Notes under the pieces: generated by a model
Database searches by the model: none
Seen by the model: the letters and a program-made list of their open reading frames with translations, nothing else
What the model was told of the DNA's origin: nothing
Shown here: piece by piece, positions 4,455 through 10,671 of the stretch
Layout of the letters: each line of letters starts with the position of its first letter
Position numbering within the stretch: position 1 is the first letter of the stretch
From: Perkinsus olseni
Taxonomy: Eukaryota
Direction of reading: 5' to 3'
NCBI GenBank assembly: GCA_013115125.1
Contig: JABANN010000155.1
Span: forward strand, 1 to 60,047
Length of the DNA stretch: 60,047 bases
Position numbers and translations under genes: made by a program

Positions 4455-6602
4455 ATGGAGGGCGGATCTTATTTCCGAGGCACAGCGTCGGATCAGGATC
4501 CCTTCTTCAGGAAAACTGGTGATCAGAAACTGATGGCCAAGATGAAGTTCCCGAAGAGCTTTGAAAAGTACTAGGATGATGGACGGCGGGCTGATGGATC
4601 TTTATATTTAGAGGAGAGGATGGGAAGCGAGTTCGTTTTTGAGAATAGCAAGTATAGACTGGTCACCGCGTTTCGATTCTGGTTGGTAGTTTTGAGGCAG
4701 AAAATTTTAACACTCCGTAAAAATATTGTCCGTCGTGTTGTTTGTTTTGGAGTAGTATAGTCGAGAGAACAGCGGAGAGTTTTCCGGCGGCCCTCGCAGT
4801 CTGTCACTGGTCATCATCCCGTGTGGACGGTCAGGCCGGTGGATTTGAATCGCATCAATGTTGACGTCCTCCGACCCTGGGTAACGGATCGGATAACTGA
4901 TATCATCGGCACTGAGGATGAGATTGTTATTGATTACGCCTTGGAGCAGATCACAGCCACACCTGACCACACAGAGGTGAGAGATGTTCATTGGGATGCG
5001 AATCGATCATTAGGGCGCGCGCTACGGCTCTCAGGTTGACCCTAGGGAGATGCAGTTGAGTTTGACGGGCTTCCTGCAGCGCGGAGCGGCGCCGTTTTGC
5101 GAGGAGTTATGGGAGATGTTGCTGAGTGCACAGGTGAGTGATAAACCTGGAATATGACCTACCTGGGGATTGAACCCGGTATCTTTCGTAGGACTCTCCG
5201 GCGGGTGTACCTGCTCAACTGGTTGATCGTAAGAAGAGAGAGATGATGAGGAAGAAGGAGGAGGCTGAGAAAGTTAAGCGAGAAATTGAGGAGAGGAAAG
5301 CGGCAGCAGAGGCTGCTGCGAAGAAGGTGGTTATTGGGCTGTGAATCTTGTCTGAATCTTGTTCGTAATGAGCGGGAACTCTCCGATTACCCAACAACAG
5401 AAGCTTTTCATCGGATTAGATCGTACCTGCCTAATTTGAAATTGCACCCGGGATTCTCATCCGTGCGGCAGAGGATTTGTTTTCACATTCATCTGTTCCA
5501 CAGGAGAGCGAATCCACGTATTATCCCCCGCCCCCACCCGGGCCGCTGCTCATACCGACGGCTCCTGCATTCGACACCAGAGGTAATCGCCACATAACCG
5601 ATTGTCAGGGCGAGCGCGTAGTCACACTTTTTCCTATGTCCTGTTTAGTTCGCCGTGGGCCGATCAGACCGCCATCGCCTGGCTCGAAGACGGGCGTCCC
5701 GGCGGCAACCCCACCTGGGGAGAAGCCCCCGCCTCCGCCTCCCGGGATGGCCGAGGACTCGTAGTGTTTCGTCGTTGGCCGTACTTGCCGTAAATGATTG
5801 CTATTATTCCATCAGGCACTCGCAGGGTTCTGATTTACCGGTAAGGAGGAGAAGAGAGAGATCTCAGGACAGCGAGAGGCGCGGCAGGTAGGCAATAATC
5901 GATTACTTGGGCGTAGCGAATCTTGCAGTATGTATTTTGTAGGGGTCGGTCCTCATCTCGGTCCCCGCGCGGGGAGGAGGTCGAGCAGAACGGGCGGGAG
6001 TCGAGGTCTCGTGATGGAAGGAGGCGTCGGAGTCGCAGGTAAAATGCAGATCGCCGGGATCGAACCTGGGAGCATCCATCCTCAGTCGGTCTGGTCGACG
6101 AGATGACAGTCGTAGACGTCATCACCATCACCACCACGATGAGAGGCGAGGAGAGAGGCGGAGTAGCAGGAGGAGGTCCGAGGACAGGCAGCGGGATGCC
6201 AGGCGGTAGGCGACTGGCCTTTTGTCAAGTGTGTTTATACCTGAGGTTAGACGGGACGATAGAACTCCTACGAGGAGACACTCGAGGAGGGATCGATCGG
6301 AAGAAGGACCAGAGTCATCAGCGAGGAGGAGGAGAGCATCGAGATCTAGGACGCCACCTCAGAGTAGGAAGGGTGACTTCAGGCGAGACCGGTCGAAAGG
6401 GGAAGGTCGGGGACATAAGGATGAGTAATGACGGGTGGTGGGGTCGAACCTGCGTCCTGGGAGTTGGTGTGCTCTTAGTCGGGGAAGATCTTTGAGTTTT
6501 GGCCGGCGATCTGATTCTGAGACGAGTCGAGTGTCGCGGAGGTCCGAGGAGAGGTCGGAAAGTCGGGGCAAAAGTGAAGATAAGAAAGCAGCAGCTTCGT
6601 GA
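4455..6602 (+). CDS. SRRM1: PWI-domain, Arg/Ser-rich splicing coactivator (SRm160-like), multi-exon
   Basis: MEGGSYFRGTASDQDPFF...KMKFPKSFEK|PVDLNRINVDVLRPWVTDRITDIIGTEDEIVIDY...PREMQLSLTGFL...FCEELWEMLLSAQ matches the SRm160 PWI N-terminus. A Pro-rich and RS-rich tail follows, ending KKAAAS* at 6600-6602. Confidence 0.85.
5155..5179 (-). other. tRNA-3'-end-like / B-box element in an SRRM1 intron
   Basis: rc CCGGG TTCAATC CCCAG GTAGGTC A TATT. Confidence 0.7.
6045..6069 (-). other. tRNA-3'-end-like / B-box element in SRRM1 intron 6039-6085
   Basis: rc CCAGG TTCGATC CCGGC GATCTGC A TTTT. The TTTT is the aaaa of the donor gtaaaa. Confidence 0.75.
6429..6453 (-). other. tRNA-3'-end-like / B-box element in SRRM1 intron 6425-6478
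   Basis: rc GCAGG TTCGACC CCACC ACCCGTC A TT. Confidence 0.7.
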
Positions 6603-6677
6603 GGTGCAAGTAGACGTACAGCATAGAACGAGATACTTTCCGAATGTTTGTGGTGCCGTTTCGCGTTGGAGTAGGTC

Positions 6678-7666: not shown

Positions 7667-7702
7667 TTTTCAAGCGTTTTTGGCTTGTCGCCGTTTCCCG
7701 TG

Positions 7703-10671
7703 ATGATGGCCAACGACAGTCACCATCAGCGAAGTTGGGACAGCTTAGGGCTCAACGAGAAGTCGATGGACTTCGTCAATAACACCCTCGGCTTCTCTCA
7801 TCCAACGCCGGTAAGCTTGACCGCTGCGCCACGAAATTAGTTTTCCTTGGGGCACTCCTCGATGGTGTTGAAAGGGATGGTGGTTCATTACGTGGCTTGT
7901 AGGGTTGACGGTAATGGTCGCAGGTCCAATCCGTGGGTATTCCATTATTCCTGCAACGGAAGGATGTTGCCTGTGAGGCGGCCACTGGGAGTGGTAAGAC
8001 GCTAGCGTTCGTACTGCCTATCATGGAGATGACAACTAAGCGACTTGCAGAAGCAGATGTAGTACGGTATCATGGGTTGACTCCAATAAGATACAAAATA
8101 GGTCAACTCGTTAATCAGGATTGCTCGGATTTTATCATACCCGAGGCTGCGAGCGTAGGAGCGGTTATTCTTTCACCTACGAGGGAGCTAGCGACTCAGA
8201 TTCACGATATCATAATGAAATATATCCATGGTAATGCAGATTGCCGGGATCGAACCTGTGCTCTTCCAGGAATCTACTTTTCAGCAAACCCGAATCCCCA
8301 ACTGAAGTGCTACTGTTTCGTCGGTGGGCGAGACATCCATGCGGACCGTGCTGTCATCGAGGGAGCTAAGGGATCCTCGTTAATACTCGTTGGTGAGGTT
8401 ATGGTATCTGAGGGGTGGGCGTCGAAGTTCTCCTGCCAGGCACTCCGGGTAGAGTACGCCACATTCTTTGTGAGAAGGAAGCGGACAGTCCGTTGAGAAT
8501 GAAAACTGCGGAGGTTGGTATTGGAATCTTTGCACGCATCGACATAGGATTCGATGGTGATGAATTCTTCACTGTGCGCAGGTGCTGGTCCTGGATGAGG
8601 CAGATCGTCTCTTGGCTTTGGGATTCGAGAAAGATATGTCGGACATATTCGCTGTGTTACCGAAGCAGGTAAATAGGTATTAAAACGCCTTTGCCGGGGG
8701 TCGATCCCGGGTGTCCTCTATCAGCGCCGTACATGCCTCTTCTCGGCTACACTGGCGGGTGCTGAGATCAAACAACTTGTCAGGAAGGCGGGACTAAGGA
8801 ATCCTGTTCATGTAAATGCCTCTACCAGGGATCGAACTCGGGTAGCATTTATGTGCTCAGGTTAAAGTATCTCGGCCGTCTTCATCCCCCAGTACAGAAG
8901 GAGGGAAGGATACCTACGACCTACCCCAGGGGTTGGAGAACTACTTTAAGGTCATCGCCCAACGTGAAAAGCTGCCCTGGATGAAACGCTTCGTCGAAGC
9001 TCGGGCGAGAGGTAGTGTCAGGAGTGAAGGGAAGATGGTGATTGTTCAGTGCCAGGGTCGAAGGTATTGGTTTTCTTCCTCACTTGTGCGTCGGTCGACT
9101 ATCATTTCGCTGTACTGAAGGAGCTGTGGAAGGAGGAAATGGAGGGTAGGAAAGGGCGTGGATTCGATCCTCGCTAGGGTTCTTTTGTTGCAGGTGAGAG
9201 TCCGTCGATCAGCCTGCACCGAATGCACGGTCACATGACACCATCAGCCCGACATAAGGCATACAAAGCATTCAGCGAGGGGAAGTACTGCCGGGCGAGC
9301 GCTATTTCGTCGGTTATGCGTGAGATTTGAAAGTTTATTTGTTAGGTCTGAGGACGACGGATGCACCAACGTGATGCTTGCTACTGATCTGGTGGCACGC
9401 GGTGTTGATATCCCGAAGGTGACGAGGCCCGGAATCGAACCCGGGTCGTTTGCATGGAAGTGATGTCCTCTCGCTCAGGTCGATTGGATTGTCCAATTCG
9501 ACCTTCCCCAATCTCCGTCATTCTTCATCCATCGTGTTGGAAGGACAGCGAGAGCCGGAAGGGAAGGGCAGGCAGTCGCCTGTATGCTAGAGAGCGAGGT
9601 GATGATGCTCATACAGAAAGCGCTCGCCCTGGCGATCGATTTAAGCCTTCCTCCTACCATCCATAATTTTCTTACGCAGGTTGATGGATACCTCTCTTTC
9701 CTGAAAGGTCGAGGAGTATCTTTGGCGAAGTGGGAGGATGAGGTTGAAACTGAAAGATATGTTGAAGCGCATGCAGCAGAGATGTTGGAAGATATCCGTA
9801 AAACGTACAATGAGAAATCACGTAAGTCCTTACTGGCTTGCATGACCGCGCGCCACGAAATTTCAGGCGACTTCCTTGACAAGGCAGTAGCGGCATTTGT
9901 GTCGTTCGTCCGAGGGTATTCCGAGCACGAGCTGAGCTTTGTATTCAACATAAAGGTGGGAGAAATGGGGGTAGTTGGGATAGAACCTGGGACCTTTTCC
10001 GCTTCAGGAGCTCGACCTGGGCGATGTTGCGACATCCTTCAGCCTTTTGAGGCTCCCGCGAGTGAAGGAGATCATGGGCCGACAGATAGCGAACTTTGTG
10101 CAGTCGGATGTCATACCCACAGAACTGCGAGGTTCCGGGTTCAATTCCTGGTACCGGTCTTTTTCCAGGTGGCGCCAGACTCCGTTGCTTACTCTGATGC
10201 AACGAAGGAAGCAGCTCGACAAGAGCGACTCAAGAAAGTTGAGATTGAGCGAGAAGAGCGGAAGAAGAGAAGAGAAAAGATTGCGCAGAAACAGAGTATG
10301 CACGCACGCGCAATATCTTAGGTTGACCCTTGTCCTTTTCAAGATGTTGTCCGGAGCCGAACCGAGAAGAGGGAATGTCGCCGTACGACGACCCAACACG
10401 AATTGGACTCCCTCCAGCGTGAGGAGGCGTTGGTGAAGAAACTGAAGAAAGGTGATGGTGTGGGGAGGAATTTCGTGGCGCAGCGGTCGTCGTATTGATA
10501 GGCAAGATTTCTCGGAAACAGTTCGAGCACGAGATGAAGACGTTGGATGGTGTCGAGGATGATGACGACGATGCTGATGAGCTCTCGGAGTCTTCGAGCG
10601 CGGAGGAGGAGACGGAGAAGGTTGGAGGATCGTCGGTCACGAAGAAGCGGATACGAAAGGATGTAATGTAG
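7703..10671 (+). CDS. DDX55: DEAD-box RNA helicase of the Spb4/DDX55 family, multi-exon
   Basis: Q motif [10 protein letters not shown], motif [62 protein letters not shown], and the Spb4-type [18 protein letters not shown]...LLRLPRVKE. Confidence 0.9.
8235..10159. other. Seven tRNA-3'-end-like / B-box elements in DDX55 introns (8235-8259 -, 8686-8710 -, 8817-8841 -, 9158-9182 +, 9420-9444 -, 9966-9990 -, 10135-10159 +)
   Basis: ACAGG TTCGATC CCGGC AATCTGC A; CCGGG ATCGACC CCCGG CAAAGGC G TTTT; CCGAG TTCGATC CCTGG TAGAGGC A TTT; GTGGA TTCGATC CTCGC TAGGGTT C TTTT; CCGGG TTCGATT CCGGG CCTCGTC A; CCAGG TTCTATC CCAAC TACCCCC A TTT; CCGGG TTCAATT CCTGG TACCGGT C TTTTT. Confidence 0.75.

Follow-up and report, generated by a model that had tools for sequence, protein, structure and literature searches.

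A 60,047-base contig (JABANN010000155.1) of Perkinsus olseni, a parasite of oysters and clams, carries dispersed copies of a short element that resembles the 3' end of a transfer RNA (tRNA) gene together with its oligo-T terminator. Copies lie within spliced introns of three neighbouring genes (SRRM1-like, SDHAF2 and DDX55), and the T-run of the element is used at both cis- and trans-splicing acceptors. We favour, tentatively and at somewhat below even confidence, the reading that this introner-like tRNA-gene tail gives rise to minimal introns whose splice signals draw on its terminator run. The origin of new spliceosomal introns is a long-standing open question, and known mass intron gain, by introners, comes from a few kinds of transposon. 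If our reading is true, tRNA-gene tails would provide a new and very simple route to introns in which the terminator of RNA polymerase III (Pol III) is reused as a splice signal in genes of RNA polymerase II (Pol II). The parasite is culturable and transformable and its close relatives have been sequenced, which makes direct testing possible. All counts below concern one window, the whole contig.

The element corresponds to the 3' end of a tRNA gene

A search of the whole window for the B-box motif GGTTCGAWYCC with at most one mismatch gave 30 matches against 4.35 expected (about seven-fold), and none of 100 shuffles reached 30. Six near-palindromic sites match on both strands, the 30 matches representing 24 distinct sites. 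A profile for nhmmer was made from 23 collected copies. Its E-values are circular because the model was made from the same 23 copies; copy orientation is clear because at every site the profile score is far higher on the tRNA-sense strand than on the other.

The flanks of the B-box, which were not part of the search motif, give independent evidence: the 23 copies resemble a tRNA gene between about position 43 and the discriminator and then run into oligo-T. Of the 92 outer T-stem pairs, 63 are intact, against roughly 3 in 8 by chance. Sixteen of the 23 copies have C at position 72, 17 have A at the discriminator (position 73), and the four bases past the discriminator are T at 66 of 92 positions. 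Positions 43-48 have the consensus AAGG(T/A)C, which we take to be typical of the variable loop; before about position 43 the copies have no sequence in common. The core (positions 44-73) measures 30 nucleotides (nt), or 34-36 nt with the T-run. In the closest pair (6040-6077 and 8232-8267), 2 of 25 positions differ from the T-stem to the discriminator and the upstream sequences are unrelated. That the element is a tRNA-gene 3' end, as the original prediction held, is borne out by the T-stem, C72, A73 and oligo-T features, and on these sequence grounds we consider it confirmed that the element is real and so derived.

The seven-base acceptor strands vary widely among the copies and form only a few small groups, namely GATCTGC/AATCTGC (6065 and 8255), CGAAGGC/CAAAGGC (59580 and 8706) and ACCCGTC (6449 and 56306), as expected if several tRNA species were the source. 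The discriminator is followed by oligo-T and not by CCA, which points to a tRNA gene or its primary transcript, rather than mature tRNA, as the source. ARAGORN detected no tRNA gene in the 60,047 bases; Rfam gave nothing at gathering score in the window, nor any tRNA hit in 2000-11000 when E was relaxed to 10. With the likeness starting only at about position 43, no copy has a complete cloverleaf, and none qualifies as a functional tRNA gene by ARAGORN or Rfam.

The excess of matches, unreached by any shuffle, and the tRNA features shared beyond the searched motif refute chance or base composition (the G+C content of the window is about 0.52) as the source of the core set of copies, an explanation that is scarcely credible in general. 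Chance most likely does account for one further model hit at 25511-25543 (E 0.0044), which lies inside a methyltransferase coding frame and was rejected.

Gene models and transcripts around the copies

A 40-residue helicase exon in the window is 100% identical to P0001, a protein of 1183 residues annotated as 'ATP-dependent RNA helicase ddx55, partial [Perkinsus olseni]', with orthologues P0002 in P. chesapeaki and P0003 in P. marinus. P0001 contains PWI, DEAD, helicase-C and Sdh5 domains, and it is a fusion of three genes, SRRM1-like (a PWI protein), SDHAF2 and DDX55, across two spacers. When P0001 was mapped onto the window, 32 gaps appeared, each of which can be closed by a GT..AG intron that gives the exact protein. 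Two 'introns' of the P0001 model, 6599-6899 and 7514-7748, are gene spacers: in the RNA contigs the transcripts are separate and have loose adaptor ends at 6724, 7570 and 7670. The RNA contigs also add two SDHAF2 introns (6799-6845 and 7420-7470), of which P0001 keeps the latter as coding sequence (VGNLEVASSILGQGFFQ). The true introns in 4434-10822 thereby number 32 and total 2402 nt, and 27 of them are 81 nt or shorter.

The RNA junctions comprise 15 of 61 joints listed, and most introns rest on protein mapping and a contig-length sum. Among the joints listed are the introns 7420-7470, 7811-7923, 8059-8118, 8231-8284 and 10663-10783. For the 14 further DDX55 introns, located between 8284 and 10662, the mapped lengths total 768 nt. 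RNA contigs of runs X7, X10 and X11 require 1611 exon bases between the same positions, leaving 768 intron bases, the exact total of the 14 mapped introns.

The SDHAF2 messenger RNA (mRNA) ends near 7570, and one third of the spacer of about 100 nt between SDHAF2 and DDX55 is a tRNA-like copy. The DDX55 mRNA starts at 7670, with the extra letters CATCTTGGC before genomic TCAAG. Together these match the 3' portion of the P. marinus spliced leader PmaSL1 as given in PMC3101222; the DDX55 mRNA is thus trans-spliced at AG 7673-7674. Upstream of the three genes, in what we call the first gene, RNA pieces 2977-3179 and 3421-4113 flank a 241-nt intron at 3181-3421 with GT..AG boundaries.

The element makes up most of many minimal introns

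A clear copy is present in 11 of the 27 short introns (81 nt or less) of the SRRM1-like, SDHAF2 and DDX55 genes, antisense in eight and sense in three; the other 16 splice without the element. Two sense copies (6670-6704 and 7635-7672) lie between genes. The approximately 3645 nt of coding sequence in 4434-10822 hold no copy (P = 1.7e-5 by length alone). The copies in and between the three genes are as follows.

5150-5187, minus strand: antisense copy in SRRM1-like intron 5134-5191 (58 nt, from P0001 mapping); starts 21 nt past the donor; nhmmer E 3.7e-5
6040-6077, minus strand: antisense copy filling SRRM1-like intron 6039-6085 (47 nt); donor GTAAAA followed by TGCAGATC
6425-6458, minus strand: antisense copy in SRRM1-like intron 6425-6478 (54 nt); donor GTAA followed by TGACGGGT; RNA pieces of two runs stop at 6424
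6670-6704, plus strand: sense copy in the spacer that separates the SRRM1-like stop from the SDHAF2 start; ends ...TTCCGGC-A-AG
7431-7467, plus strand: sense copy in SDHAF2 intron 7420-7470 (51 nt), skipped in RNA of four runs; T-run is the pyrimidine tract TTTTTCCAG
7635-7672, plus strand: sense copy in the DDX55 outron; T-run and CAAG end at the spliced-leader acceptor (AG 7673-7674)
8232-8267, minus strand: antisense copy in DDX55 intron 8231-8284 (54 nt, RNA of four runs); donor GTAA followed by TGCAGATT; CCAG at 8269 unused
8681-8712, minus strand: antisense copy in DDX55 intron 8669-8724 (56 nt); altered B-box (GGATCGACCCC)
8812-8844, minus strand: antisense copy in DDX55 intron 8812-8860 (49 nt); common to P. 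marinus
9150-9186, plus strand: sense copy in DDX55 intron 9146-9193 (48 nt); T-run TTTTGTTGCAG; nhmmer E 0.058
9416-9452, minus strand: antisense copy in DDX55 intron 9419-9478 (60 nt); discriminator position is the T of the donor GT
9961-9999, minus strand: antisense copy in DDX55 intron 9956-10007 (52 nt)
10128-10164, plus strand: sense copy in DDX55 intron 10110-10168 (59 nt); T-run TTTTTCCAG

The copy at 6670-6704 is read through as GPGFNSRFRQV in P0055, another P. olseni record. The remaining copies lie in the first gene or further along the window.

2545-2580, plus strand: weaker copy, first gene; nhmmer E 0.016
3207-3231, plus strand: weaker sense copy in the first gene, 5' end of its 241-nt intron 3181-3421; nhmmer E 0.045
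3902-3938, minus strand: unspliced antisense copy; CTAAAA where intronic copies have GTAAAA
16845-16882, minus strand: strong copy; plus-strand flanks GTAGTAAAGA... and ...CTGCTGCAG; outside gene models
26262-26298, plus strand: strong copy, then TTTATATTTTGAACAG; outside gene models
41769-41799, plus strand: weaker copy without T-run; nhmmer E 0.017; outside gene models
44187-44224, plus strand: strong copy, then TTTTTCAG; outside gene models
56295-56328, plus strand: strong copy without T-run; outside gene models
59351-59387, minus strand: strong copy near the contig end; outside gene models
59554-59591, minus strand: best-scoring copy (nhmmer E 4.4e-7); outside gene models

Gene models, and with them intron assignment, cover 4434-10822; the copy at 2545-2580 and the seven from 16845 on lie outside that stretch. 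The copy at 3207-3231 is preceded by the D-arm-like GGTAGAGCGC and may represent a longer tRNA fragment than the other copies. The copy at 3902-3938 is unspliced because it lies inside the continuous RNA contig 3421-4113 (three runs), probably in the 3' untranslated region (UTR) of the first gene. It shares its ends with the intronic 8231-8269 copy except for the G of GT.

The original prediction had drawn several of these introns from the letters alone. Its antisense introns 6039-6085, 6425-6478, 8812-8860 and 9419-9478 agree with the GT..AG introns that reproduce P0001, and it placed the acceptors past the sense copies correctly, at 7470, 9193 and 10168; its copy at 10159 belongs to intron 10110-10168. 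The RNA check of junctions that it called for showed two element-bearing introns directly, among them 7420-7470, and supported the donor at 6425, the other DDX55 introns being fixed by the 768-nt sum. The same check redrew a proposed 39-nt intron at 8231-8269, which was wrong: RNA contigs of four runs skip 8231-8284, or 54 nt. A copy it saw at 44218 exists (44187-44224), but the intron claimed around it is not demonstrated, the open-frame test being too permissive and the frames, judged by eye, indecisive. The element was also said to take up about half of each 39-60 nt intron; it fills 34-36 of 47-60 nt, hence over half.

Element-bearing introns have a median length of 54 nt, against 52.5 nt for element-free short introns. 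Given this equality, the element did not simply lengthen a normal intron: it either constituted the intron from the outset or was spared while the rest was deleted. Without the element only 11-26 nt of intron would remain, too small for an intron when compared with the shortest Perkinsus intron, 39 bp, reported in PMC3101222.

Several element-bearing introns are multiples of three and stop-free, and they already corrupt the gene models P0001 (at 7420-7470) and P0003 (at the homologue of 8812-8860). Perkinsus introns with these two properties, or with alternative donors within them, mislead gene prediction.

Two other DDX55 introns have features of their own. Intron 2 (8059-8118) has an 11-bp stem (the GGGUUGACUCC region with GGUCAACUCGU) with an 18-nt loop and a folding z-score of -2.12, and contains the B-box-like GGGTTGACTCC with two mismatches. 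Intron 12 (9599-9679, 81 nt) begins with GUGAUGAUG, a C-box-like motif, and has a weak Rfam match to the C/D small nucleolar RNA family snoR14 (E 8.4), far below the gathering score.

The T-run supplies splice signals in both orientations

The oligo-T proved compatible with splicing either way, as had been proposed: it serves as the pyrimidine tract in sense introns and, as its complement, as the donor A-run in several antisense introns. In all three sense introns the T-run is the pyrimidine tract, 6-9 nt before the AG. The spliced-leader acceptor of DDX55 shares this arrangement of T-run and YAG with them, so that at all four acceptors the T-run is followed by 2-5 pyrimidine-rich bases and then AG. 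In four of the eight antisense introns the A-run stands directly behind the GT, giving GTAA(A)(A); in a fifth (9419) the discriminator position is the T of the donor GT. Antisense copies also have a CTCTTYCC-like tract ahead of the acceptor, contributed by the complement of the purine-rich variable-loop region. The tRNA-like part does not include the GT and AG themselves.

A strict register between element and splice signals, as originally claimed, is not supported, since the offsets do not go beyond free placement in tiny introns (P = 0.10-0.13). From the discriminator to the nearer intron end, the distances are 1, 4, 4, 5, 6, 10, 17 and 21 nt for antisense copies and 8, 9 and 11 nt for sense copies. 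The T-run side is nearer the boundary in 8 of 11 introns, and uniform placement gives at least 8 of 11 in 13% of trials. Register is a tendency that, in this sample, is inseparable from lack of room.

A candidate route from tRNA-gene tails to introns

In the mechanism that we favour, the copies are tRNA-gene fragments consisting of the variable loop, the T-arm with the B-box, the 3' acceptor strand, the discriminator and the Pol III oligo-T terminator, with the 5' half and A-box of the tRNA gene missing. These fragments are dispersed through Perkinsus non-coding DNA and would have entered transcribed DNA as insertions of about 35-45 nt in either orientation; those landing in coding sequence would survive only where the spliceosome could remove them. 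A sense insertion would bring its T-run as a ready-made pyrimidine tract, just a few bases upstream of a YAG. An antisense insertion would bring an A-run behind a GT, making a GTAAAA-type donor, with CTCTTYCC preceding the acceptor. The element would thus be the body of minimal introns and not a passenger in them. We infer insertion as the origin of the introns, with DNA, or complementary DNA of a primary Pol III transcript carrying a U-tail, as the intermediate; intron gain from tRNA fragments is plausible. We count the unspliced UTR copy and the equal intron lengths as signs that the unit exists apart from splicing. PMC3706591 reports more than 500 genes of five tRNA types in P. marinus, which implies a large source pool in the genus.

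Several findings weigh against this mechanism. The copies are tightly clustered, 16 of 23 lying within 7.7 kb, or 12.8% of the window (binomial P = 5e-10), and a gene at 18270-20000 has no copy in its seven RNA-confirmed introns; taken together, these make random insertion no explanation. No target-site duplications or other insertion scars set element-bearing apart from element-free introns, both of which show 0-3 nt of AG|G(T) microhomology. The copies are far from identical, so recent transposition is not shown. Uniform placement gives a mean core position equally skewed or more so in 10% of cases. At least one copy is old: P. marinus P0003 residues 242-254 are a read-through of the 8812-8860 homologue (NAFTRDRTGVAFV), identical to P. 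olseni at 10 of 13 residues. This copy is therefore not specific to P. olseni and is older than the species split, although the orthologous comparison concerns one site, seen through the read-through protein annotation of P0003 and within the genus only. The records matched by the SDHAF2 read-through exon in a protein search were all from P. olseni or P. chesapeaki, none being a P. marinus read-through, and a metagenome scan for orthologous loci gave only two matches, at 28-29% identity, which were not used. Finally, the B-boxes are close to consensus, with at most two mismatches to GGTTCGANNCC in 23 of 23 copies, while about one third of the outer T-stem pairs are broken; and decayed B-boxes are not significantly over-represented in the 21 element-free introns (7 found, 3.6 expected, P = 0.11). 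Exons have no excess at all (8 found, 8.8 expected).

The state of the B-boxes bears on a different explanation, in which the copies would be B-box sites that bind TFIIIC without tRNA production, like extra-TFIIIC sites, in introns and spacers as the only non-coding room, and the cluster would act as a chromatin boundary or tether. We rate this the main and a serious rival, though less likely than the favoured reading, and such a function may hold alongside an origin of the introns by insertion. A near-palindromic B-box would work either way, and both orientations occur. The 23 uniformly close B-boxes beside only 63 of 92 surviving outer T-stem pairs, the lack of a significant decayed excess in element-free introns and the dense clustering all fit such sites, as does the copy in the orthologous P. 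marinus intron, still well kept since the two species split (10 of 13 residues, compared with 81.5% identity for the DDX55 proteins overall). The old shared copy and the near-consensus B-boxes lean, weakly, towards selection on the B-box over neutral decay. On the other side, the conservation of the B-box is partly ascertainment because the copies were collected through that motif, and the orthologous argument rests on a single site. The oligo-T, C72 and A73 are kept too, although we take them to be unneeded for TFIIIC binding, and the equal length of element-bearing introns is left unexplained. A precedent exists in C. elegans, where extra-TFIIIC sites overlap CeRep3 repeats, according to PMC6950938. 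If the B-box is the selected part, TFIIIC-type sites would exist in compact protist introns, with a bearing on how transcription is organised under spliced-leader trans-splicing.

The absence of visible scars and the age of the 8812-8860 copy would also suit neutral passengers, that is, a mobile element or tRNA pseudogene fragment that entered pre-existing introns later trimmed to minimal length. A UTR, gene spacers and a 241-nt intron hold copies as well, and in 8231-8284 the unit ends at the unused CCAG, 15 nt before the acceptor, resembling an insertion beside older intron sequence. Deletions would, however, have had to spare the 35-nt element in 11 introns while removing older sequence, and arrive at the same median length. 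Such sparing is likely only if the element carries signals or a function, which leads back to the other readings, and we consider neutral passage unlikely.

A role at the RNA level is very improbable. It would have a T-arm hairpin in the pre-mRNA bound by a protein or tRNA-processing enzyme that defines or clears tiny introns. A T-arm-like hairpin does appear in the predicted fold of most element-bearing introns, and its reverse complement would still form a hairpin. The folding z-scores of the 11 element-bearing introns nevertheless run from -1.68 to +0.34, none below -2 (nine other introns range from -2.12 to +0.67). No tRNA-like minihelix is possible because the 5' acceptor strand is missing, the loop sequences differ between sense and antisense copies, and 16 of the 27 short introns of the same genes splice without the element.

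Insertion of a splice-competent tRNA-gene tail thus stays our preferred, if tentative, account. In its most far-reaching form, Perkinsus would build spliceosomal introns from its own tRNA-gene tails, about 35 nt sufficing in either orientation; the terminator would become a pyrimidine tract or a GTAAAA donor, the retained B-box would be a TFIIIC landing site that ties Pol III factors to Pol II gene architecture, and the same module would stand at spliced-leader acceptors. That full combination we regard as doubtful.

Other features of the window

Some observations fall outside the element-bearing genes. B-box-like hits at 25127-25137 and 31313-31323 (also 27794 and 31578) have near-identical 65-nt surroundings about 6.2 kb apart, a likeness between 25127 and 31313 that suggests a duplicated gene segment. 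The open reading frame 24626-25876 encodes a methyltransferase (Methyltransf_24, E 5e-9). RNA depth in the four mapped runs is zero or nearly so at 11340-13340 and 15342-18009 despite long open frames; one of these, 12698-13318, has a weak match to an IQCH-like ATP-grasp domain. RNA mapping flagged repeats at 2098-2156 and 12018-12094, where reads are apparently cut.

Comparison with known systems

We found no description of tRNA-like introns in Perkinsus in the literature, in which subscription journals and supplements were thinly covered, and a prior account is possible. In the same genus, Dada DNA transposons of P. marinus (4.7-11 kb) insert inside tRNA genes, as described in PMC3706591. 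The two systems have in common the genus, a huge tRNA gene pool and mobile DNA tied to tRNA genes; nothing like a Dada end was found beside the copies, and no link between the two emerged.

Short interspersed nuclear elements (SINEs) derived from tRNA resemble the Perkinsus element in tRNA-gene origin, in the B-box, and in being short and dispersed. SINEs have a 5' tRNA head with A and B boxes and a tail that is A-rich or related to long interspersed nuclear elements. The Perkinsus copies share only the tRNA 3' part (no dedicated A-box scan was made upstream of them), the oligo-T follows the discriminator directly, and in place of target-site duplications there is only the 0-3 nt AG|GT microhomology. 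Having neither the A-box half nor a tail of the SINE type, the copies fall outside the definition of SINEs. Another parallel is the antisense Alu, whose oligo-T serves as the pyrimidine tract for new 3' splice sites; in both systems splicing takes over a homopolymer run from a repeat of Pol III origin as one of its signals. The Alu outcome is a new exon in a long intron; the Perkinsus repeat makes up almost the entire intron, with T-run and complement each in use.

Extra-TFIIIC sites resemble the copies in carrying a tRNA-pseudogene-like B-box that makes no tRNA, in their enrichment in introns and in their clustering. In C. elegans they overlap CeRep3 repeats, which resemble tRNA pseudogenes; they are over-represented in introns, form dense clusters and carry both Box-A and Box-B (PMC6950938). 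The Perkinsus copies are without the A-box half. The copies do have a B-box consensus without a functional Pol III gene, which makes them candidate sites at the sequence level. Unlike extra-TFIIIC sites, the Perkinsus element additionally contributes to splice signals in minimal introns.

Besides SINEs and extra-TFIIIC sites, the closest known kind is the introners of Micromonas, Aureococcus, fungi and Amoebophrya, in which related sequence occurs in many short introns, fills most of the intron and supplies some splice signals. Introners of Micromonas, Aureococcus and fungi carry inverted and direct repeats at their ends, or else are long, structured elements. The same holds for the introner elements of Amoebophrya (PMC7789003). 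Neither inverted termini nor target-site duplications were found in the alignment of the Perkinsus copies or in their flanks. Like introners, the Perkinsus element is one family present in many introns at unrelated positions (11 of 27), the shared part being a diverged core of 30-36 nt, and it supplies splice signals through its T-run and A-run. Unlike them, its copies share the 3' end of a tRNA gene, are spliced in both orientations, are diverged from one another and include one that is common to two species.

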